Position numbers and translations under genes: made by a program. From contig CAYHYM010000016.1 of NCBI GenBank assembly GCA_964360965.1, positions 1-11,805 of the forward strand: a stretch of DNA of 11,805 bases, written 5' to 3'. Positions 2,827 through 11,805 of this stretch are shown in pieces. Every line of letters begins with the position of its first letter. The stretch's first letter is position 1. Origin of the DNA: an uncultured Gammaproteobacteria bacterium (lineage in GTDB: Bacteria; Patescibacteriota; Microgenomatia; Daviesbacterales; UBA10151). The notes under the pieces were generated by a model. The model saw only the letters and a program-made list of their open reading frames with translations. It made no database searches and had not been told where the DNA came from.

Positions 2827-3941
2827 TACTTAAGTATTGCCAAAGGATTAATCGGTACTCCTTTGTAATGTATTTCAAAATGAAGATGGGTTCCGGTTGA
2901 TCTGCCTGTTGACCCCATTTGTCCTATTATTTGTCCTCTGGTGACATTTTGGCCTGCTGATACGTAAACATTAGACAGGTGGGCGTATAAGCTCTGATAA
3001 CCATTTTGATGATCAATTACCACCCGATTACCATATCCCTGTCCGTCAGGCCAGCCTGCCACCACTGCTATCCCTCCATCTGAGGCGGCAATGCCCGGGG
3101 CGCTCTTATTGGGTATATCAATGCCCGGATGATACCAGGCAAAATATTGAGAAATTCCACCGTCTGTGGGCCAGACAAAATTGCCCCCGAAAGGCGCCTC
3201 AAAAGCAGGAGAAGATGGGCCTTGAGATAAATATTTTGGTCGGGGCTTGATTTTAACAGGAACTTCCGGTGGCTGACCATCAGGCACCATTAGTACCTGG
3301 CCTACTTTTAGAGCAAAATCATCAGGAATATCATTAAAGGGAAAATCCAATATGGCCTGAGACTCAGCAGAATATTTTTTGGCAATGGATTCCAGCGTGT
3401 CACCTGATTGTACCTTATGGGATAAACCTGAAACAGGCAGTATCTTTAAAGTTTGTCCCGGAGAAAGACTGTGAATATCTGTCAGATTATTGGCCCACTT
3501 GATAGTGTCAGCAGATAGGCCATATTTTTTGGCAATGGAACTTAAGGTATCGCCGCTCTCCACTTTATATTCCTCTACCTCTGAACGGGGTTTAACTGAG
3601 ACATCTGTATGCGGATCTTGTATCTCATCCAGTATCAGACCCGAAGGATATGGCTCAAAAGCCTGTATAAATCTGGGATCAGGTCCACCTATGCCCGGAT
3701 AGGTGGATGAAACAATGCTACCCCCTCCAAACACGCCTGATGTTAAAACTCCCACTGAAAAAAGACCCAGCATAGAGGTATGAAAGATGCTTTTTTGCAA
3801 AGCCCCCCGCCTTCTCATCATCACCTCAACGGAAATGTTTTTGATACTCTCAAAACGGGCAGCAAAATAGGCTATCTTTCTTTTTGAATACCAGACAGTT
3901 GCTTGAAATAAGGCTTTGATGTCTTCAGCATGAGAATTCAC
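2826..3941 (-). CDS. LysM-domain (x2) M23-family metallopeptidase, a peptidoglycan hydrolase
   Basis: 371-aa ORF with an N-terminal TM segment (MLGLFSVGVLTSGVFGG). It has two LysM repeats (YKVESGDTLSSIAKKYGLS..., HKVQSGDTLESIAKKYSAES...). M23 zinc motifs are present (YHPGIDI; GRSTGTHLHFEI). Confidence 0.9.
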   Translation of the reverse strand: MNSHAEDIKALFQATVWYSKRKIAYFAARFESIKNISVEVMMRRRGALQKSIFHTSMLGLFSVGVLTSGVFGGGSIVSSTYPGIGGPDPRFIQAFEPYPSGLILDEIQDPHTDVSVKPRSEVEEYKVESGDTLSSIAKKYGLSADTIKWANNLTDIHSLSPGQTLKILPVSGLSHKVQSGDTLESIAKKYSAESQAILDFPFNDIPDDFALKVGQVLMVPDGQPPEVPVKIKPRPKYLSQGPSSPAFEAPFGGNFVWPTDGGISQYFAWYHPGIDIPNKSAPGIAASDGGIAVVAGWPDGQGYGNRVVIDHQNGYQSLYAHLSNVYVSAGQNVTRGQIIGQMGSTGRSTGTHLHFEIHYKGVPINPLAILK

Positions 3942-3983
3942 AGGTTACATTTTAACAGATGCTTGCAACAATGTGTAATCGTA

Positions 3984-4006
3984 CCTCCAAGGGGACGCCT
4001 TGGAGG
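3984..4006. repeat. 23-nt hairpin element, CCTCCAAGG-GGACG-CCTTGGAGG (upstream copy)
   Basis: A perfect 9-bp stem with a 5-nt loop, 44 nt upstream of the transposase ATG. A 21/23-identical copy lies at 4750-4772 in the same orientation. Confidence 0.85.
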
Positions 4007-4007
4007 C

Positions 4008-4034
4008 TTGACAAATGTGTCAAATTTTTATAAC
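4008..4034 (+). promoter_or_regulatory. Putative promoter for the transposase-like gene, embedded in the palindrome TTGACA-AATG-TGTCAA
   Basis: TTGACA at 4008-4013 and TATAAC at 4029-4034, with a suboptimal 15-nt spacer. TGTCAA at 4018-4023 makes a 16-bp palindrome with the -35 element. Confidence 0.3.
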
Positions 4035-4049
4035 CTAAAAGTTAGAACA

Positions 4050-4748
4050 ATGCCAGCAAGAAACTCACTAAAAACCTATATACAGGAAGGATATTACCAT
4101 ATCTACAATCGAGGTGTAGAAAAAAGGTTAATCTTTCAAGATCAACAAGATTACTCAGTCTTTCTCTCCTATCTTAAAACATACCTATCTCCAAAAGATG
4201 AAAAGGAACTCCAGGATAAATTATCCAACTCAAATATAACAGCCAGAGAAAGGGATCAGATTTTGAAGCTTTTACGACTTAATAACTTCTTTGGCGAAAT
4301 CATTCTTTTTGCCTACTGTCTTATGCCTAATCATTTTCATTTTCTTATAAAACAAAAATCAGCTGATGCAATAGATAAGTTTATGAATTCATTCAGTACC
4401 AGATATACAATGTATTTTAATCGTAAAAATGGCAGAGTTGGACCTTTATATCAAGACGTGTATAAGGCAGTTCTGGTTGAGTCAAATGAGCAACTTCTAC
4501 ACCTTAGTAAGTATATTCATCGTAATCCTGTTGGTTCTGCTCCATTACGAAGAGATGCTTTACAAGCTAAGTTATTCAAACAACCATCATCTTACCCTGA
4601 GTATCTTGGTCAAAGACAAACAGGATGGGTGCATCCGGAAGAGATATTGAGCTATTTTTCAAAAACCAATCCACAACTTTCCTATCAGTCTTTTGTGGAG
4701 CAGACAGAAGATATTAATGTAATAAAAAATATATCAATAGATCATTGA
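4050..4748 (+). CDS. IS200-like HUH / Y1 tyrosine transposase family protein (REP-associated tyrosine transposase, RAYT-like)
   Basis: Family hallmarks are YYHIYNRG near the N-terminus, the HUH motif in CLMPNHFHFLI, and the catalytic-Tyr region LSKYIHRNPV. I start the CDS at the ATG at 4050 (MPARNSLKTY...). The 40 codons upstream in the track ORF run through the hairpin and promoter region and overlap the divergent M23 gene start. Confidence 0.8.
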   Translation: MPARNSLKTYIQEGYYHIYNRGVEKRLIFQDQQDYSVFLSYLKTYLSPKDEKELQDKLSNSNITARERDQILKLLRLNNFFGEIILFAYCLMPNHFHFLIKQKSADAIDKFMNSFSTRYTMYFNRKNGRVGPLYQDVYKAVLVESNEQLLHLSKYIHRNPVGSAPLRRDALQAKLFKQPSSYPEYLGQRQTGWVHPEEILSYFSKTNPQLSYQSFVEQTEDINVIKNISIDH

Positions 4749-4749
4749 G

Positions 4750-4772
4750 GCTCCAGGGGGACGCCTTGGAGG
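4750..4772. repeat. 23-nt hairpin element (downstream copy), GCTCCAGGG-GGACG-CCTTGGAGG
   Basis: 21/23 identical to 3984-4006, with the same loop orientation. The stem is 8 bp including one G.U. It starts 2 nt after the transposase stop and sits in the 32-nt gap to the convergent rho stop. Confidence 0.85.
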
Positions 4773-4780
4773 TTCACAAA

Positions 4781-6058: not shown

Positions 6059-6130
6059 AGTTTAATTGGTATTAAATAGTAAGTATTTAAGTATAAGGGA
6101 AACTGCAAAATTTGGAGCTTACTATTATTA

Positions 6131-6159
6131 AGTAAACCATATTCCATCTTCTTTGTCAA
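6131..6159 (-). promoter_or_regulatory. Putative rho promoter (extended -10)
   Basis: The minus strand reads TTGACA (6159->6154), a 17-nt spacer ending in TGG, then TTTACT (6136->6131). This would give a leader of roughly 65 nt before the rho ATG at 6058. Confidence 0.4.
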
Positions 6160-6189
6160 CCCTTCAATCTAATTCCCTTCAATCTAATT
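6160..6189. repeat. Perfect tandem duplication of a 15-mer (CCCTTCAATCTAATT x2), enclosed by the 8-bp inverted repeat TCAACCCT (6156-6163) / AGGGTTGA (6191-6198)
   Basis: Read directly. It abuts the -35 hexamer of the putative rho promoter. Confidence 0.85.
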
Positions 6190-6202
6190 CAGGGTTGATA
6201 GC

Positions 6203-6247
6203 CTGAAATGGGGACTAGTCCCTGCCCAAGACTAATCCCCATTTCAG
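6203..6247. promoter_or_regulatory. Nested palindromes: 12-bp arms CTGAAATGGGGA (6203-6214) / TCCCCATTTCAG (6236-6247), and an inner perfect 12-bp palindrome GGGACTAGTCCC (6211-6222)
   Basis: Read directly. The GGGGA segment can pair with either TCCC (6219-6222) or TCCCC (6236-6240). It lies between two divergent putative promoters, so an operator or RNA-switch role is only an inference. Confidence 0.5.
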
Positions 6248-6276
6248 ACTACCACCACACTGCTTATTTTGGGGTA

Positions 6277-6304
6277 TTGACAACCCTGAAATTTTTGCTC
6301 TAAT
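6277..6304 (+). promoter_or_regulatory. Putative strong promoter with extended -10, driving the three-hairpin RNA
   Basis: TTGACA at 6277-6282, a 16-nt spacer, TGc at 6296-6298, and TCTAAT at 6299-6304. The predicted TSS is near 6311, 4 nt before hairpin 1. Confidence 0.45.
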
Positions 6305-6363
6305 CTTAAGTCAAGAAGATGTATGATTTGTCTGCTTAAAATCATATGTCTTCGTTATAAATC

Positions 6364-6412
6364 AAAGAGCATTGCTATTCGAGTCCGTCTGCGGTAGTAA
6401 TGCTCTTTTTTT
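6364..6412 (+). terminator. Intrinsic terminator (hairpin 2 plus T7)
   Basis: Stem AAAGAGCATTGCTA / TAGTAATGCTCTTT has 14 bp including one G.U. T-tract at 6406-6412 (the first three T pair with the A-run at 6364-6366). Confidence 0.6.
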
Positions 6413-6456
6413 AAAAAGGATTCCCTGGTCCGTCTGCCTCCAGGGAATCCTTTTTT
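6413..6456. terminator. Bidirectional intrinsic terminator (hairpin 3, A5-stem-T6)
   Basis: An 11-bp GC-rich stem GGATTCCCTGG / CCAGGGAATCC is flanked by AAAAA (6413-6417) and TTTTTT (6451-6456). On the minus strand it starts at the stop codon of the 44-aa ORF. Confidence 0.55.
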
Positions 6457-6589
6457 ACCCTCTAACCATCAGTATCAATTTTTGATCAGATGATCCTAAA
6501 ACTTTCTTGACCTGTTCTGTCATCACATCAATACTTTTAATTTTCAGCTTTTTCTCGCTTTTAGGAGCCCAAATCCTTTGTATAAACAT
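6455..6589 (-). CDS. Small hypothetical ORF (44 aa, MFIQRIWAPKSEKKLKIKSIDVMTEQVKKVLGSSDQKLILMVRG)
   Basis: It falls below the 60-aa cutoff of the ORF track and was read by hand. The ATG is at 6589 and the TAA at 6457->6455. Its own TTGACA-17-TAGAGT promoter lies 12 nt upstream, which predicts a near-leaderless mRNA. The stop abuts a terminator hairpin. There is no SD and no recognisable homology. Confidence 0.25.
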   Translation of the reverse strand: MFIQRIWAPKSEKKLKIKSIDVMTEQVKKVLGSSDQKLILMVRG

Positions 6590-6601
6590 AAAGTAATAAT
6601 T

Positions 6602-6630
6602 ACTCTACCACCCAAAAAACTATTTGTCAA
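6602..6630 (-). promoter_or_regulatory. Putative promoter for the 44-aa ORF
   Basis: The minus strand reads TTGACA (6630->6625), a 17-nt spacer, then TAGAGT (6607->6602). The ATG follows 12 nt later. Confidence 0.35.
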
Positions 6631-6793
6631 GTATTTGCTAACCCATAGATTTTTTTATACTAAAATTCCATAGTCCTGTAGTTTTAAAAGGGGGTTACCA
6701 TGAGTAATTTAGGCTGTTATAACAAGCTAAAATAAGTGTATATTTTTGGATATTAACAGGAATTTAGGAGATGTGGATAACTTGCTAATGACA

Positions 6794-7669
6794 CTAAAAG
6801 GATGTCTTTCCAAATATCATTCTGCCTGCATCCTGCTGCAGCAGTTTTGTCACTTCTATATTGATCTCTTGACCCACAAATAGGGCCCCTTCACTTACCA
6901 CCACCATGGTACCGTCAGACAAATATCCTATCCCTTGAGCAGGATTTTTGCCTAAATGCATTATCTTCACAGTCATTTTTTCTCCTGGAATAACTATGGT
7001 CCTTAAAGCATTACTTAGCTCATTGACATTTAACACCTCTATACCATGAGTTTGGGCCATTTTATTTAAATTAAAATCAGTAGTTAAGATTTTACCGGAG
7101 ATGGCTTTGGCCAGTTTGATCAGTTTCTCATCAACTTCGGCTTTGCCTGCTTCCTTATCCCATATCTCCACTTTGATCCCGGCCATCTTTTTCAAATCAT
7201 TTAAAATTTCAAAACCCCTCCTACCCCTGGCCCGCTTGATGGAATCTTTGGAATCTGCCACCTGTTGAAGTTCCAGCAGGATAAAATTGGGCACAATTAA
7301 AATACCTGAAATAAAACCGGTTTTGGCAATATCCAAAATCCTGCCATCAATCAAACTGGAAGTGTCAACCACCAGTGATTTTCTAAGATTGGTTCTTTGG
7401 GCAGGTCTGGGCAGTCGCAGTAGTTGATTTAAAATCTCTGAGGATACCCTTTGAACTACAAAATTAAAAATTGATATGGTGGATGTGGTCGCCTTGGTGG
7501 CAATGTCGGGGAAAAATAGAAACCCCAAAAATCCAGCCACCACAGTTACCAATATTTTAACAGCTAAGGTATCAGTCCCTTTAAGTGGAGGGATCAGTTC
7601 TGAGTAAATAACTGCCAATGTGGCAAAAATGGCAGCTACCAGTAGCCGCAATATTAACCTGATAGGCAC
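6794..7669 (-). CDS. Membrane-anchored PIN/TRAM domain protein (YacL-like)
   Basis: 291-aa ORF with a GTG start preceded by AAGGAA 8 nt upstream. It has N-terminal TM helices. The PIN-like core is VVDTSSLIDGRILDIAKTGFISGILIVPNFILLELQQVADSKDSIKRARGRRGFEILN. The C-terminal TRAM-like segment is GQEINIEVTKLLQQDAGRMIFGK. Confidence 0.85.
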   Translation of the reverse strand: MPIRLILRLLVAAIFATLAVIYSELIPPLKGTDTLAVKILVTVVAGFLGFLFFPDIATKATTSTISIFNFVVQRVSSEILNQLLRLPRPAQRTNLRKSLVVDTSSLIDGRILDIAKTGFISGILIVPNFILLELQQVADSKDSIKRARGRRGFEILNDLKKMAGIKVEIWDKEAGKAEVDEKLIKLAKAISGKILTTDFNLNKMAQTHGIEVLNVNELSNALRTIVIPGEKMTVKIMHLGKNPAQGIGYLSDGTMVVVSEGALFVGQEINIEVTKLLQQDAGRMIFGKTSF

Positions 7670-9311: not shown

Positions 9312-9432
9312 GTCCCGGCAGTGAGGTATTTTCACATATCCTTGCGAATATATTATCGTCCCCGCTGAGGCGTTTCACGACCCTGTTCGGAATGGAAAAG
9401 GGGTGGGACCACCTCGCTAAAACCACCGAGAG
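9312..9432 (-). rRNA. rrf: 5S ribosomal RNA
   Basis: The reverse complement contains GGTGGTCCCACCCCTTTTCCATTCCGAACAGGGTCGTGAAACGCCTCAGCG, which matches the conserved 5S loop B / helix III / CCGAAC / GUGAAAC blocks. Helix I closes as UCUCGGUGG (9431->9423) with CUGCCGGGA (9321->9313). Ends are good to about 3 nt. Confidence 0.9.
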
Positions 9433-9436
9433 CTAT

Positions 9437-9465
9437 AGTATACTAAAAGGAATTTCAAATCTCAA
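9437..9465 (-). promoter_or_regulatory. Putative dedicated promoter for 5S rRNA
   Basis: The minus strand reads TTGAGA (9465->9460), a 17-nt spacer, then TATACT (9442->9437). The predicted TSS 6-7 nt later coincides with the inferred mature 5S 5' end (9431-9432). Confidence 0.45.
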
Positions 9466-9579
9466 GCACCAAGTGTCATCTATTAACAAACTATATCAAA
9501 GTGAATCTGCAGTACCAGCAGTTCAACCAAGGTAAAACCCTTCGACTCTCTTCCTTCGACTTTGCTCAGGACAAGTCGT

Positions 9580-9631
9580 TCGCTCAGGGCAAGTCCTTTT
9601 TGGTGGGCAGACATAATTCAAATATACCATA
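9580..9631. repeat. Left copy of a 52-bp imperfect direct repeat bracketing the TA cassette; preceded by a partial extra copy at 9562-9578
   Basis: In an ungapped alignment with 10265-10316, 14 of the first 17 nt match (TCGCTCAGG...) and 18 of the last 22 nt match (...GACATA..TATACCATA). The centre is divergent, but GGGCAGA is present in both. On the minus strand it contains TGGTATATT, an extended -10-like element. Confidence 0.7.
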
Positions 9632-9633
9632 CT

Positions 9634-9891
9634 CTAACCATATAAATTACTATGCGAATCTATGGCCACAAAAATAATTTCATCTTGAACTTGTTTGTAA
9701 ATTACCCTCAAATCTCCTGTAACATTAATACTTCTAAAACCACGATACTTTCCCTGAAGAGAATGATTATTTAAAGTTTCGTGGAATTGATCTTGACCAA
9801 ACAGCTTTAATCTTTGCATCAATCTTTCTTTCTGTCTGATAGTTAACCTTTTAGAATCTTTAATAAAATCCTTATGATAATTAATTACCAT
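9634..9891 (-). CDS. Type II toxin, RelE/YafQ-family mRNA interferase
   Basis: 85-aa ORF (..KRLTIRQKERLMQRLKLF..HSLQGKYRGFRSINVTGDLRVIYKQVQDEIIFVAIDSHSNLY). The size, motif layout and 7-nt overlap (ATGGTAA) with the upstream antitoxin gene are typical of this family. Confidence 0.85.
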   Translation of the reverse strand: MVINYHKDFIKDSKRLTIRQKERLMQRLKLFGQDQFHETLNNHSLQGKYRGFRSINVTGDLRVIYKQVQDEIIFVAIDSHSNLYG

Positions 9892-10163
9892 TGCTTTTCG
9901 AGGTAATCAATGGCTTCATCCATATTCTTAAAGCTAGGCGAAAGATTTCTATCATGCTTAATATCCTCTTCCACTCTACCCAGTAATTTTTCCAGTTCAG
10001 GAGTCATTTGGGGGATATCGGAAAAAACAATCTCCCTGGTTCTGATAAAATTTCTTAAAGAAGCATTTATCACATCAGATAAGGTTAACCCTAAATCTTT
10101 AGCAGCCTTTTGAGCATTTTCCTTAACTTCTTTATCAGCTTTAATGTGGATTACTGTTGTCAT
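9885..10163 (-). CDS. Type II antitoxin, RelB/DinJ family (ribbon-helix-helix)
   Basis: 92-aa ORF. The N-terminal VIHIKADKEVKENAQKAAKDLGLTLSDVINASLRNFI matches the RelB/DinJ RHH pattern. It overlaps the toxin gene. Confidence 0.8.
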   Translation of the reverse strand: MTTVIHIKADKEVKENAQKAAKDLGLTLSDVINASLRNFIRTREIVFSDIPQMTPELEKLLGRVEEDIKHDRNLSPSFKNMDEAIDYLEKQW

Positions 10164-10171
10164 ATAACCAA

Positions 10172-10200
10172 AGTATATACGATGGTTACAAACTTGTCAA
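10172..10200 (-). promoter_or_regulatory. Near-consensus promoter of the TA operon; predicts a leaderless mRNA
   Basis: The minus strand reads TTGACA (10200->10195), a 17-nt spacer, then TATACT (10177->10172). Only 8 nt separate the -10 from the ATG at 10163, and there is no SD. Confidence 0.55.
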
Positions 10201-10217
10201 TAACCTACAAAAGTCTG

Positions 10218-10244
10218 ATTAGTATGATATTCTCATTAGTATGA
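10218..10244. promoter_or_regulatory. Direct repeat ATTAGTATGA x2 (10218-10227 and 10235-10244; period 17) just upstream of the TA promoter; possible operator
   Basis: The repeats were read directly. The operator role is an inference from the known autoregulation of type II TA operons by RHH antitoxins. Confidence 0.3.
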
Positions 10245-10264
10245 ATTATACTCAAAGCTCACCA

Positions 10265-10316
10265 TCGCTCAGGACAGGACCACGGGCAGATTTGGACATA
10301 TTTTTAGTATACCATA
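10265..10316. repeat. Right copy of the 52-bp imperfect direct repeat bracketing the TA cassette
   Basis: See 9580-9631. On the minus strand it contains TGGTATACT (extended -10-like). It lies about 115 nt downstream of the inferred 23S 3' end. Confidence 0.7.
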
Positions 10317-10428
10317 TATTTGTACCCTGAAATGTGAATACGTCCCGCACTAGTCGCTTTCGCTCCAGTACGGGATTAGAAGGCCATAACCACCAACAGT
10401 ACAAATGATGTACCGAATGGTGGGTCAC

Positions 10429-10845
10429 AAAAAATCTCAACCATAACCATTAGTACTGGTAGGCTAAAACTGTTACCAGCCTTACACCGCCAGCCTATCA
10501 ATCCTTCGATTACTCTCAGGATTCCCTTACGGGAGGTCGTAGTCTACGACCGGTCTTTATAGATACCTCATCTTGGGGTCTGCTTCGTGCTTAGATGCTT
10601 TCAGCGCTTATCAGTTAGCAACGTAGCTACCCAGCGTTGCAGGTTTACCCACAACTGGCACACTAGAGGTTGCCTCATCTCGGTCCTCTCGTACTAGAGA
10701 CAACTCCCCTCAAGTATCAAAACGCCCATGTTGGATAGAGACCGAACTGGCTTACGCCGTTCTGAACCCAGCTCGCGTACCGTTTTAACGGGCGAACAGC
10801 CCGACCCTTCCCACCTACTTCAGCAGGAGGATACGATGAGCCGAC
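10429..10845 (-). rRNA. rrl: 23S ribosomal RNA, 3' exon (domain V 3' part plus domain VI)
   Basis: The reverse complement contains GTCGGCTCATC...GGTACGCGAGCTGGGTTCAGAAC. It also has the sarcin-ricin loop CTAGTACGAGAGGACCGAG, then GATAAGCGCTGAAAGCATCTAAGCACGAAGC and ...GATAGGCTGG...CAGTACTAATGG. The 3' end is placed by analogy with E. coli 23S from memory and is good to about 10 nt. Confidence 0.9.
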
Positions 10846-11750
10846 CATGGTTCTCCCTCTATTACTAGAGGCATAGACTATACCATCATCCCTGCACCAT
10901 CTGGTGCGGGGCGCTCAGCGTGTGATATGAATACTTCATATCTCATCATTCTCAATCTAGAATGAATCAGTCGTTACGGGGTCACAAGAATTTTGTAAGC
11001 TAAGTTAGGAATTATAAATTTAGAAATCAAAGGTATCAATCTAAACGTTTCAGTTTTGCTGAAATACATTCTAAAACCTTTATCTCTATCCTTATAAAAA
11101 TTACTATCTAGAGCAAATTTTTTCAAAAATACTCTTTGCAGCAACTTTATTTCTCCTAATTTAAAAGAATAGGTACTTATATCGATTTTATTTCGACTTA
11201 ATGAACCATCGTCCATAATCCAAATTGCCAAAGCAAGTGGATCTAAAAGATCTACTATATTCTTCGGAACAACTTTTATTCCATGTTTGTAAAACAATTT
11301 ATGAAATAAAGTTAACTTTGGATGACGAATGGTTCTAAACCACCAAGATTTAGCATAAGGAATTCGATTTTCATCGTACCTCATACTTAATTTGGGTGGA
11401 GTTGTAACCCACTCTTTAAACACTTCATACTTCCAGAAAACATAATCCTTTTGTTTTAATCCCTGTTCTATTTTAAAGTTGGCATTAAGGGCATTTTTAC
11501 CTACCCTCATTGTGCCATCTCCTAAAAGAGAACCTACCAAAACAGAAATTTGAGTTTGATTTAAACTCAAACCTTGTTTATATCTCTGAAGTTGGCGTGT
11601 TTGCATTCTTGGACTTCCCTCGGTATTGCCCCTTAACTTTAGATTACCCGAAAGTAATCCGAATTGTCAAGTAGGGTTTCACCGATATGAGCTGAATTTT
11701 TCCATAGAGAATTGCTTCTCTAGGCGACATACCTATTTCACTATAGGTTA
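10846..11750 (-). mobile_element. Group-I-like intron (~905 nt) in 23S rRNA carrying a LAGLIDADG ORF
   Basis: rRNA similarity breaks after ...GGCACCTCGAT (exon ends in U at 11751) and resumes at GTCGGCTCATC (10845). The intron ends in G (10846), consistent with an omega-G. The 3' part contains GGTATAGTC, which resembles the conserved group I core S element. Boundaries are good to within a few nt. Confidence 0.7.
10974..11606 (-). CDS. LAGLIDADG-family homing endonuclease (two-motif, single-chain type), intron-encoded
   Basis: 210-aa ORF with two LAGLIDADG-like motifs (LVGSLLGDGTM and LAIWIMDDGSL) about 100 aa apart. It lies wholly inside the 23S intron. A GAGGGAAG SD-like element lies about 9 nt upstream. 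Confidence 0.85.
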   Translation of the reverse strand: MQTRQLQRYKQGLSLNQTQISVLVGSLLGDGTMRVGKNALNANFKIEQGLKQKDYVFWKYEVFKEWVTTPPKLSMRYDENRIPYAKSWWFRTIRHPKLTLFHKLFYKHGIKVVPKNIVDLLDPLALAIWIMDDGSLSRNKIDISTYSFKLGEIKLLQRVFLKKFALDSNFYKDRDKGFRMYFSKTETFRLIPLISKFIIPNLAYKILVTP

Positions 11751-11805
11751 ATCGAGGTGCCGAACCTTGCCGTCCTTGTGGACTGTAGGGCAAGACTAGC
11801 CTGTT
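11751..11805 (-). rRNA. rrl: 23S ribosomal RNA, end of the 5' exon (continues beyond the window)
   Basis: The reverse complement AACAGGCTAGTCTTGCCCTACAGTCCACAAGGACGGCAAGGTTCGGCACCTCGAT matches the domain V central-loop strand (E. coli ...GACGGCGGUGUUUGGCACCUCGAU). Confidence 0.85.

Follow-up and report, generated by a model that had tools for sequence, protein, structure and literature searches.

The plus-strand segment at ~6311-6412 of the window, the whole stretch of 11,805 nucleotides analysed here, is predicted to be the gene for a small RNA (sRNA) of ~100 nt, composed of a first hairpin (H1), an A/U-rich linker and a second hairpin (H2) used as terminator. In the best reading of the locus, the product of this gene would be a convergent antisense sRNA that contacts terminator hairpins of minus-strand transcripts by loop-loop pairing; taken together, the gene and this mode of action appear to us reasonably probable. 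The window derives from a groundwater organism of Daviesbacteria-like type. The sRNA gene is conserved throughout a class of ultra-small bacteria living in groundwater, is present in no RNA database, and the predicted RNA represents an undescribed family.

The initial annotation had described a promoter-to-terminator sRNA unit on the plus strand, a description supported by the conservation of the promoter, the covarying stems and the terminator in related genomes. The putative promoter (6277-6306, plus strand) contains the -35 hexamer TTGACA (6277-6282) and two candidate -10 elements, namely TGc-TCTAAT (6296-6304, spacer of 16 nt) and the equally good TAATCT (6301-6306, spacer of 18 nt), with a predicted sRNA start at ~6311-6314. 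It had been considered a strong promoter: TTGACA and TGc-TCTAAT with its 16-nt spacer are indeed as described, but the second position of TCTAAT is not the canonical A, and a simple promoter scan left the element unflagged for this reason. In 30 of the 35 family members, TTGACA precedes the modelled start of the RNA by 25-30 nt, and the TGn and nAnnnT -10 elements are kept in Daviesbacteria. As expected of an independent sRNA gene, this conserved promoter of its own is accompanied by a Rho-independent terminator, H2 and its T-run being present in all members.

Sequence and fold define H1 at 6315-6353 of the plus strand, with a 15-bp stem including two G.U pairs and the loop GTCTGCTTA (RNA GUCUGCUUA) at 6330-6338. 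The single-stranded linker (6354-6363, plus strand) is A/U-rich, its sequence being variable and its A/U-richness constant in the alignments. H2 (6364-6408, plus strand) has a 16-bp stem, a loop region delimited by 6378/6380 and 6392/6394 and seven T residues at 6406-6412. A third hairpin, H3 (6413-6455), consists of a perfect 16-bp stem and the loop TCCGTCTGCCT at 6429-6439 in the letters of the plus strand, and its T-run is a component of an A5/T5 bidirectional stem. Both H2 (16 bp, T7) and H3 (16 bp, A5/T5 on both sides) show the stable stem-loop followed by a U-run that characterizes intrinsic terminators; they were overlooked by a simple terminator scan because their loops are longer than 8 nt. 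Folding of 6305-6460, which had been proposed earlier, was run on both strands and yielded three strong hairpins, the plus-strand RNA being the more stable (-63.1 kcal/mol, z = -10.7, equalled by 0 of 200 shuffles; -50.1 kcal/mol for the minus-strand RNA). Reading of the sequence also confirmed that GTCTGC is present in all three hairpin loops and that the loops of H2 and H3 have a 10-mer in common, GTCCGTCTGC, which occurs only at 6383 and 6428. There are five copies of GTCTGC on the plus strand (374, 6330, 6387, 6432 and 10578) and three on the minus strand, for ~1.9 expected per strand, and the chance of a 6-mer common to three loops of these sizes is ~1e-4 or less.

To look at related genomes, a covariance model was used, which recovered one sense copy each in 35 of 80 related loci, all of them from Microgenomates-type CPR bacteria. 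Genomes of the Davies-, Levy-, Woese- and Shapirobacteria types carry the sRNA as a single, syntenic copy. The covariation anticipated for the stems was borne out on the proposed strand, as expected of an independent sRNA: in the H1 stem of 15 Daviesbacteria, both sides have changed in 10 of 13 pairs, which 0 of 500 shuffles matched, and double changes occur at 19 of 30 pairs in the family-wide alignment, where 95.8% of cells are paired versus 40-48% in slid controls. Read on the plus strand, this alignment contains 113 G.U against 7 A.C, an excess which indicates selection on the plus-strand RNA. The base of the H2 stem, GAGCAUUGCU...AGUAAUGCUC, is invariant, this part of the stem being conserved in all 35 members, the inner pairs covary with changes between G.U and A-U or G-C that are consistent with the plus strand, and the T-run 3' of H2 is conserved. 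Across 17 Daviesbacteria loci, the H2 core is the same save for single positions in two of them (L007 and L143).

The loops are conserved in a different manner from that first proposed, since GUCUGC is not a family-wide loop motif. The H1 loop keeps the family motif YCUGYYY across lineages, with several members lacking it (L061, L073, L059, L034 and L037), and the apical part of H2 varies by lineage, the string UUCGAGUCCGUCUGCGG carried by the H2 loop in the window being specific to Daviesbacteria. Similarly, the three-hairpin RNA has to be revised to two conserved hairpins, as H3 goes with the stop codon of a small convergent ORF.

This ORF (6455-6589, minus strand, 44 aa, MFIQRIWAPKSEKKLKIKSIDVMTEQVKKVLGSSDQKLILMVRG; gene call on the source contig) lies in the interval between rho and the PIN/TRAM gene that had been regarded as an ORF-poor gap. 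It shows conservation at the protein level and third-position variation in all Daviesbacteria, and has recognisable homologues in other Microgenomates. Comparison with Pfam and NCBIfam gave no match, and a search of 5.8 billion proteins returned two proteins, one of which was the query itself. The small protein is unannotated and almost always missed by gene callers. Its sequence is hydrophilic, basic and Lys/Arg-rich, and devoid of a hydrophobic segment of membrane-spanning length. The promoter scan placed a candidate promoter at 6602-6630 on the minus strand (TTGACA, 17 nt, TG-n-TAGAGT), and ACTTGACAAATAGT and TGGTAnnnT are conserved 5' of the ORF in 14 Daviesbacteria loci; the mRNA would be near-leaderless, with a predicted 5' UTR of a few nt. 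The proposed location upstream of rho turned out not to reflect a tie to this gene, from which the unit is separated by 0.4-9 kb in other Daviesbacteria, where it is always found beside the PIN/TRAM gene and the small ORF. A rho leader or attenuator was rejected on the basis of this distance and of the opposite orientation of the element. In nearly all loci, a TRAM-domain protein and the basic 44-aa protein are encoded adjacent to the sRNA.

The gap between H3 and the stop codon of the ORF is of -5 to +12 nt in nine loci out of nine, whereas H3 and H2 are 9 to 273 nt apart, depending on the genome, and H3 was assigned to the small ORF on these grounds. H3 is thus best assigned, as a putative bidirectional intrinsic terminator, to the convergent ORF on the minus strand. 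Ten of the 17 Daviesbacteria loci possess it; the stem differs between them, the loop does not. In the loci without H3, the ORF stops 7-19 nt from H2, which suggests that the antisense of H2 is the mRNA terminator there. The interval that separates H2 from H3 has been fluid in evolution, with insertion of extra hairpins. Together with the A- and T-runs flanking H2 and H3, which would allow termination both ways, this fluidity is what could be expected if the hairpins were no more than a stack of bidirectional terminators, without any sRNA function, insulating convergent or tandem genes (PIN/TRAM and small ORF on one side, rho on the other). Such an arrangement appears very improbable to us, because the conserved promoter aims into H1, H1 strongly covaries although it has no U-run, the G.U asymmetry denotes selection on the plus-strand RNA, and the loops are conserved while being unneeded for termination.

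On the other side of the sRNA promoter, a further hairpin (U, 6196-6254, minus strand) has a ~25-bp stem and displays on the minus strand the loop UUGGGCAGG, which is complementary to the H1 loop. In 39 distinct examples of U, the stems are variable and the loop is invariant, and the presence of 143 A.C (equivalent to G.U on the minus strand) versus 21 G.U on the sRNA strand indicates that U folds on the minus strand. The duplex between the H1 and U loops amounts to 7-10 bp in 27 loci and the two loops are complementary in most of the family, variation of the H1 loop being confined to C/U where it faces the G's of GGGCAGG. In the window, U has neither a U-run nor a promoter of its own, and inspection of Daviesbacteria revealed no convincing minus-strand promoter; lacking its own promoter in the window, U would be transcribed solely via read-through. 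In some lineages the U hairpin shows insertions or duplications. As judged from the sequence, a likely rho promoter is located downstream of U.

The H3 loop is complementary to that of H2, its sequence on the mRNA strand being AGGCAGACGGA. Duplexes predicted between loops in the window reach -17.5 kcal/mol for H2 with the antisense of H3, -13.7 kcal/mol for H1 with the antisense of H3 and -10.3 kcal/mol for H1 with U. Elsewhere, H3-type hairpins show GCAGACGG on their terminator strand, irrespective of how they are oriented in the DNA with respect to the sRNA. One of them (L007, 7161-7208) follows a surface-protein gene, 27 nt after its stop codon, and has G.U pairs and a T6 run on the strand of that gene; another belongs to a unit (L008, 16082-16172) made up of a consensus TTGACA-17-TATAAT promoter, a 19-bp hairpin and U8. 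The H2 variant of L007 (A for U) faces a partner loop without a compensating change, and a candidate compensatory change between H1 and U (A-U vs U-A at one position) is found in two lineages only and is broken by L016. Since both loops are conserved, the complementarity of H1 and U comes close to a single evolutionary observation. Moreover, to say that a motif recurs on one DNA strand is to say that it is complementary to the transcript of the other, so that the kissing model depends on the strand assignments; these are strong in the case of U, H1 and H2, whereas that of H3 itself is weak (1-3 informative pairs). Loop-loop pairing implies that CCGUCUGC and GCAGACGG loops should be unequally frequent between the two orientations relative to transcription. 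A ribosomal RNA target was also considered, as the 23S sequence AAGCAGAC at 10578-10585 complements the H1 loop, and was rejected, the rRNA of a Levybacteria locus having no consistent counterpart.

According to the mechanism that we favour, the sRNA and the 44-aa gene would be transcribed toward each other from separate promoters, that of the sRNA being of the sigma70 type. H1 would present YCUGYYY, and the sequence-invariant H2 would double as the terminator of the sRNA. The H2 loop (UCCGUCUGC) could then kiss the loop GCAGACGGA in the terminator of the small-ORF mRNA, and the H1 loop could kiss the UUGGGCAGG loop of U. Such pairing may modulate the stability, the 3'-end formation or the read-through of the partner transcript.

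The initial annotation had invoked another logic, that of the CsrB/RsmZ sponges. In this rival reading, the (G)UCUGC loops would dock or titrate an RNA-binding protein, for which we see the neighbouring PIN/TRAM RNase and the small basic protein as candidates. Like CsrB/RsmZ, the RNA described here bears a short loop motif repeated on unrelated stems, kept while the stems vary. The invariance of the H2 base across a class-level clade is commoner for a protein-binding site than for a plain terminator, and genes for a TRAM-domain and a basic protein are adjacent in nearly all loci. In contrast to the many (A)GGA repeats and the CsrA/RsmA partner of these systems, the conserved RNA has only two loops and two copies of the motif per RNA, with no GGA in either loop; the loop motifs vary with the lineage and differ outside Daviesbacteria, and the second loop is unconserved beyond one order-level clade. 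Furthermore, the U, H3, L007 and L008 hairpins fold or terminate on the strand that shows the complement of the motif, to which one sequence-specific protein would not bind. That RNAs transcribed from the opposite strand expose this complement in their loops points to RNA-RNA pairing, and the sponge logic receives little support. Protein docking is therefore unlikely in our opinion, and loop-loop pairing is the better fit.

A broader version of loop-loop pairing can be put forward tentatively, as a conjecture that we consider less likely than not. In such an RNA-RNA network of Microgenomates, terminator loops would serve as addresses and the class-wide sRNA would dock its two loops onto 3'-terminal hairpin loops. 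Its partners would include the mRNA of the convergent small protein, other mRNAs such as that of the surface-protein gene in L007, and the promoter-to-terminator 'hairpin-only' RNA of L008 (~58 nt), a possible decoy. Each time a new terminator arises by insertion between the two convergent genes, its loop alone would be retained by selection.

Membership in known RNA families was assessed with Rfam, including the SRP, 6S, tmRNA, RNase P and Y RNA/YrlA models. At the gathering threshold, Rfam 15 returned nothing at the sRNA in the window and only rRNA, 5S and tRNA-Ala elsewhere in it; at E<=10, the region 6060-6800 gave nothing beyond noise from hairpins of the miRNA type and a BTnc201 score of 15 bits versus a threshold of 105. 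No relevant family was found at gathering scores in 13 related loci searched whole, and E-value searches of the intergenic region of three related loci gave only sub-threshold, unrelated hairpin-type models. The nearest models (microRNA precursors and BTnc201) are alike only in their generic long-hairpin shape. ARAGORN recognized in the window only the two tRNA-Ala genes at 2634-2797, and thus no tRNA or tmRNA at the hairpins. The earlier opinion that the element is none of SRP, RNase P, 6S and tmRNA therefore stands, tRNA and tmRNA finders agreeing with Rfam.

A DNA-level or mobile feature was weighed as well, either REP/BIME repeats served by a nearby RAYT or the remnant of a tRNA 3' end or att site. 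A Y1/RAYT gene is located at 3930-4748, 1.5 kb off, and U insertions and duplications would be in line with mobility. The H2 loop resembles a T-loop, T-stem and acceptor, and the 17-mer TTCGAGTCCGTCTGCGG is identical to 3' sequence of a tRNA-Ile(UAU) gene located elsewhere among the Hainich contigs. Against mobility, the hairpins flanking the RAYT gene (3983-4008 and 4748-4773; CCTCCAAGGGGACGCCTTGGAGG) are unrelated in sequence, although a REP/BIME system would contain many near-identical short palindromes per genome that match them. A dispersed repeat, which had been raised as a possibility, does not fit hairpins that are single-copy per locus and whose stems differ between species. ARAGORN and the Rfam tRNA model were negative at the hairpins, and the tRNA likeness is not family-wide, UUCG and GCGGUAG belonging to the family-wide stem and the middle alone being specific to Daviesbacteria. 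A tRNA-like, T-loop fold of H2 was rejected: the sequence 5' of UUCGAGU forms no T-stem with CCGUC, and other lineages do not conserve the T-loop-like string. A metagenome scan with the H2-loop 17-mer, a pattern that proved too permissive, gave at least 120 stretches; among the matches listed, seven were true homologues and one was a real tRNA-Ile, the others, without the H2 context, being unrelated, GC-rich and apparently coding DNA. A DNA-level or mobile feature thus seems scarcely credible.

CPR/Patescibacteria have tiny genomes and few recognisable regulators. To our knowledge, almost no experimental work has dealt with regulatory RNA in these bacteria, and in the literature on sRNAs of CPR and Microgenomates we found no description of sRNAs in Microgenomates. 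Being single-copy and syntenic and having an invariant stem sequence, the sRNA is a good candidate for one of the core RNAs of this lineage, regulatory or housekeeping, and the family could readily enter Rfam. If functional, the loop-loop complementarity with terminator hairpins would provide a clean natural case of selection on terminator loops and would connect the sRNA with a conserved 44-aa protein that lacks annotation.

The par/Fst RNAI-RNAII of pAD1 and the bsrG/SR4 and txpA/RatA pairs of Bacillus subtilis are convergent pairs that share a bidirectional terminator, and pairing in par starts at the terminator hairpin loops. Here too, a short ORF and an sRNA converge from promoters of their own, with adjacent or overlapping 3' ends and complementary terminator loops. 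Such features of type I systems raise the question of a toxin-antitoxin-like pair, in which the 44-aa ORF would encode the toxin and the convergent sRNA would act as antitoxin at the 3' end of its mRNA; both units are short, each has a strong conserved promoter, their terminators are common or adjacent, and the ORF mRNA is predicted to be near-leaderless. In contrast to the usually hydrophobic membrane peptides of such pairs, the peptide encoded here is basic, hydrophilic and Lys/Arg-rich, has no transmembrane segment, and matches no toxin family. The locus is also fixed, syntenic and single-copy class-wide, neither patchy nor mobile. These differences make a toxin-antitoxin pair quite improbable. 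A further difference is that in 10 of 17 Daviesbacteria the complementarity of the two RNAs would be confined to the loops, because the separate terminator H3 is interposed.

CopA/CopT, ColE1 RNAI/RNAII and OxyS-fhlA are kissing-loop antisense regulators, with which the present locus has in common stable hairpins whose 7-10 nt loops are complementary to partner loops; as in OxyS, two loops face two partner sites. In contrast to these regulators, the partners proposed here are terminator or 3'-end hairpins, or a hairpin-only RNA, instead of ribosome-binding or replication-primer sites, and the loops are complementary on unrelated stems, not as the two strands of one DNA segment.

The initial annotation had placed on the + strand of the window a small RNA (sRNA) gene made of a promoter and three hairpins, here H1 to H3, that display GTCTGC in their loops. 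The sequence bears out this arrangement. The -35 box of the sRNA promoter, TTGACA (6277-6282), is followed by H1 (6315-6353; 15-bp stem, loop GTCTGCTTA), by H2 (6364-6408; 16-bp stem, TTCGAGTCCGTCTGCGG in the loop), which has seven T after it (6406-6412), and by H3 (6413-6455), whose 16-bp stem is perfect, with TCCGTCTGCCT as its loop and A5 and T5 on its flanks. Folding of 6305-6460 gave -63.1 kcal/mol (z = -10.7) for the + strand RNA and only -50.1 kcal/mol for the minus strand, because five G.U pairs of the + strand would become A.C. Five copies of GTCTGC are found on the + strand of the window, where about 1.9 are expected, and a search of the window confined the 10-mer GTCCGTCTGC to loops 2 and 3. 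Since the chance that three loops of these sizes have one hexamer in common is about 1e-4 or less, sequence, fold and motif counts together confirm the observation. No Rfam match was obtained at the sRNA region with gathering or permissive thresholds, and ARAGORN detected in the window only two tRNA-Ala genes, both away from this region.

Two ENA contigs encode the rho protein of the window; both derive from the 0.1 um filter fraction of Hainich groundwater, well H51. The closest relatives of this protein belong to Microgenomates (CPR/Patescibacteria) genomes, among them Candidatus Daviesbacteria. Nine Daviesbacteria loci were fetched through rho and at least seven were added from a metagenome scan. 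In these loci the H2 core, GCATTGCTATTCGAG(T/A)CCGTCTGCGGTAG(T/G)AATGC, is essentially invariant; 5' of it stand a TTGACA promoter and a hairpin with a genome-specific stem. A 15-sequence Daviesbacteria alignment showed both-side changes at 10 of 13 pairs of the H1 stem with 93% of cells paired, values reached by none of 500 shuffles. The covariance model built from this alignment was searched against 80 rho-anchored loci, of which 35 contained exactly one sense copy of the sRNA. All 35 are of Microgenomates type (Davies-, Levy-, Woese- and Shapirobacteria and unnamed Patescibacteria), with no match in the Firmicutes or other loci of the set. In the sense rows of the family alignment, which is fitted to the model and hence biased towards its structure, 95.8% of cells pair versus 40-48% with slid partners, and double changes affect 19 of the 30 pairs. 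The same rows count 113 G.U against 7 A.C, and the + strand is therefore the RNA strand. For 30 of the 35 members, a TTGACA box is located 25-30 nt upstream of where the modelled RNA starts. The base of H2 (GAGCAUUGCU...AGYRAUGCUC and a U-run) is kept in all lineages and its inner pairs covary (A-U/U-A/G-C). Since the base is common to all lineages and the apical part differs by lineage, the Daviesbacteria-type loop UUCGAGUCCGUCUGCGG is, as judged from these alignments, a clade feature. The comparative evidence establishes H1 and H2 as a conserved, structured + strand gene for a predicted sRNA of about 100 nt, at the site where an sRNA had been proposed. The Microgenomates family is real and apparently undescribed, with no entry in Rfam 15 and no description found in literature searches.

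In most loci a conserved box, perhaps bound by a regulator of the sRNA promoter, stands about 12 nt 5' of the sRNA -35. It reads TTTAGCTTCA in Levybacteria-type loci and the reverse complement TGAAGCTAA in Daviesbacteria, with an AAGCTT-like core, and is degenerate in the window (~6258-6268). Two divergent related loci, L031 (14540-14600) and L040 (15195-15255, both on the reverse complement), have an identical GC-rich element of ~70 nt (GGCCGCTCCTCAGCGCCCAGTAAGAGTGTTACCCCAAACCAGACGCCGGGGACCGGCC) just upstream of the sRNA homologue, without Rfam or tRNA match.

Readings of the hairpins as REP elements, as the remnant of a tRNA or as mere terminators are contradicted by the presence of a promoter, by the covarying stems, by the strand asymmetry and by the single copy of the sRNA; the hairpins beside the RAYT/IS200-like Y1 transposase gene that adjoins rho (3930-4748) are unrelated to those of the sRNA. 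The hairpin CCTCCAAGGGGACGCCTTGGAGG lies close to where the RAYT gene starts (3983-4008) and recurs almost unchanged, in REP-like fashion, just beyond the 3' end of the gene (4748-4773). A likeness to tRNA was nonetheless found in H2, whose exact loop 17-mer, TTCGAGTCCGTCTGCGG, is included in a tRNA-Ile(UAU) of another Hainich contig (L090, 1343-1418), covering the T-loop, the T-stem 3' strand and the acceptor 3' strand. This match is probably fortuitous, because H2 cannot form the T-stem and the flanking UUCG and GCGGUAG are parts of the family-wide stem.

The gap that holds the sRNA had been described as ORF-poor. It contains a conserved, unannotated 44-codon minus-strand ORF (6455-6589), convergent with the sRNA; gene calling on the source contig reported it. 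Its product, a basic and hydrophilic protein of 44 aa, is conserved at the protein level, with third-position variation, in all Daviesbacteria (...EQVKKVLxxxDQKLILMVRG*), and homologues are recognisable in other Microgenomates (...KQGREQFKKLxEKGISxPVxxL*). It had no match in Pfam or NCBIfam and two in a collection of 5.8 billion proteins, one of them the query itself. A strong promoter of its own, conserved as ACTTGACAAATAGT...TGGTAnnnT, serves the ORF; in the window it is TTGACA-17-TAGAGT (6630-6602, minus strand). The 5' UTR is very short, giving a near-leaderless start (ATGTTT). Conserved boxes CTACAGGnCTA and CTATGGG were noted 5' of its -35.

Hairpins of the H3 type, with (T)CCGTCTGC(Y)T as loop on stems that vary, are present in 10 of 17 Daviesbacteria loci. 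In the nine loci measurable for both, H3 always lies directly at the small-ORF stop codon, with a gap of -5 to +12 nt. Between H3 and H2 there are 9 to 273 nt, into which unrelated hairpins are inserted. In four loci without H3, 7-19 nt separate the stop codon from H2, and the ORF terminator there is therefore H2 antisense. Because the stop-codon gap is constant and the H2 distance variable, these positions establish a conserved small-protein gene convergent with the sRNA, with H3 as its predicted terminator and not as a third sRNA domain; the three-hairpin extent given in the initial annotation is thus reduced to H1 and H2. Such an architecture matches that of a true type I toxin-antitoxin (TA) pair, although the hydrophilic nature of the peptide and the class-wide synteny argue against this assignment. 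In two related loci (L004, 8862-8958, and L140, 2251-2348, both on the reverse complement), additional terminator hairpins between H2 and H3, with a base (AGAGCCUUG...AAUGCUCU and a U-run) like that of H2 and a different interior, look like local H2 paralogues.

Read as mRNA, loop H3 is A(A/G)GCAGACGGA, which is complementary to the H2 loop over 9-10 nt; the duplex predicted between the H2 loop and the H3-antisense loop of the window has -17.5 kcal/mol. In the related locus L007, an H3-type hairpin away from the sRNA (7161-7208) lies 27 nt past the stop codon of an LPXTG-type surface-protein gene. It shows two G.U pairs, T6 and the loop AAGCAGACGGAC on the mRNA strand, and the terminator loop UAAAGCAGACGGAC complements that of H2 in the sRNA. 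In L008 (16082-16172, minus strand), a consensus TTGACA-17-TATAAT promoter is separated by 11 nt from a hairpin of 19 bp with AAGCAGACGG in its loop; with the U8 that follows, this would specify a hairpin-only RNA of ~58 nt, complementary to the H2 loop. The unit, located between a Wzy/TPR gene and leuS, shares its DNA strand with the sRNA and is 15 kb away from it. The transcribed strand of both hairpins shows GCAGACGG, in either DNA orientation relative to the sRNA.

A fourth hairpin, U, absent from the initial annotation, is located just upstream of the sRNA promoter (6196-6254, minus strand; ~25-bp stem, loop UUGGGCAGG), in the window without promoter or U-run of its own. Its 39 distinct versions across Microgenomates have variable stems of 13-27 bp and an invariant loop, which on the sRNA strand reads CCTGCCC(A/T)A. 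Read on that strand, the stems contain 143 A.C versus 21 G.U; U therefore folds as RNA of the minus strand, its loop being U(U/A)GGGCAGG, and is followed on this strand by a U-run in many non-Daviesbacteria lineages. The H1 loop motif, which is missing in some family members, takes the forms CCUGCCU, UCUGCUC, GUCUGCUU, CCUGUCC and UUUGCCC, differing only by C/U where it faces the G's of GGGCAGG. In 27 loci the H1 and U loops could form a duplex of 7-10 bp, with energies of -9 to -16 kcal/mol against about -1 kcal/mol for the same-sense control.

In the related loci L015 (~2280-2660), L025 (~430-780), L036 and L059, the U hairpin upstream of the sRNA promoter is interrupted or has a duplicated arm. 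At these places sit GC-rich inserts with structure, 115-270 nt long, which may be mobile or may serve alternative pairing; the L036 insert has the 19-nt direct repeat CCAACTATCAACTCCCCAT on both sides, and no Rfam match was found in L025 and L036, the two checked. L031 and L040 have a CCTGCCC-loop hairpin downstream of the sRNA, not upstream. In the window, a further hairpin (TCAACCCT...AGGGTTGA, 6156-6193) encloses two direct repeats of CTTCAATCTAATTC and overlaps a candidate minus-strand rho promoter (TTGACA 6157-6152, 17 nt, TTTACT).

Elsewhere in the window, a 22-nt unit, TAAAGTGCTA(T/C)AGCACTGAGCG, which includes a small palindrome, occurs twice at 2570-2617 (start-to-start spacing 26 nt), between a Wzy/TPR gene and the tRNA-Ala pair. 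The rRNA locus (9313-11805) is unusual: a LAGLIDADG endonuclease ORF (10974-11606), presumably of an intron, stands upstream of the 23S 3' part (10443-10941) on the rRNA strand, and a RelB/YafQ toxin-antitoxin cassette (9634-10163), bordered by ~50-nt direct repeats (9580-9631, 10265-10316), lies between 23S and 5S.

The comparisons establish minus-strand hairpins with predicted loops complementary to those of the sRNA. We propose that the sRNA would pair loop to loop with these hairpins, and that such pairing may affect the partner transcripts. With a separate terminator placed between the convergent genes, the loop alone would have to persist to keep contact with the sRNA, which would explain the identical 10-mer on unrelated stems, the most striking point of the initial annotation. 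As motif identity on one strand is formally complementarity to the transcript of the other, this argument hinges on the strand given to each hairpin, and for H3 itself that assignment is weak. Few independent evolutionary events are represented by the conserved loops. The CsrB/RsmZ-like mode of action first suggested is probably wrong, since the partner hairpins carry the motif complement. A role of the sRNA as protein-docking RNA or sponge is possible, in line with the invariant H2 stem and with the TRAM and basic proteins encoded next door (the window encodes a PIN/TRAM protein), but it leaves that complement unexplained. Among known systems, the sRNA and its small ORF, with the loop pairing proposed here, come nearest to convergent antisense or type I TA pairs with a common bidirectional terminator, taken together with kissing-loop regulators.
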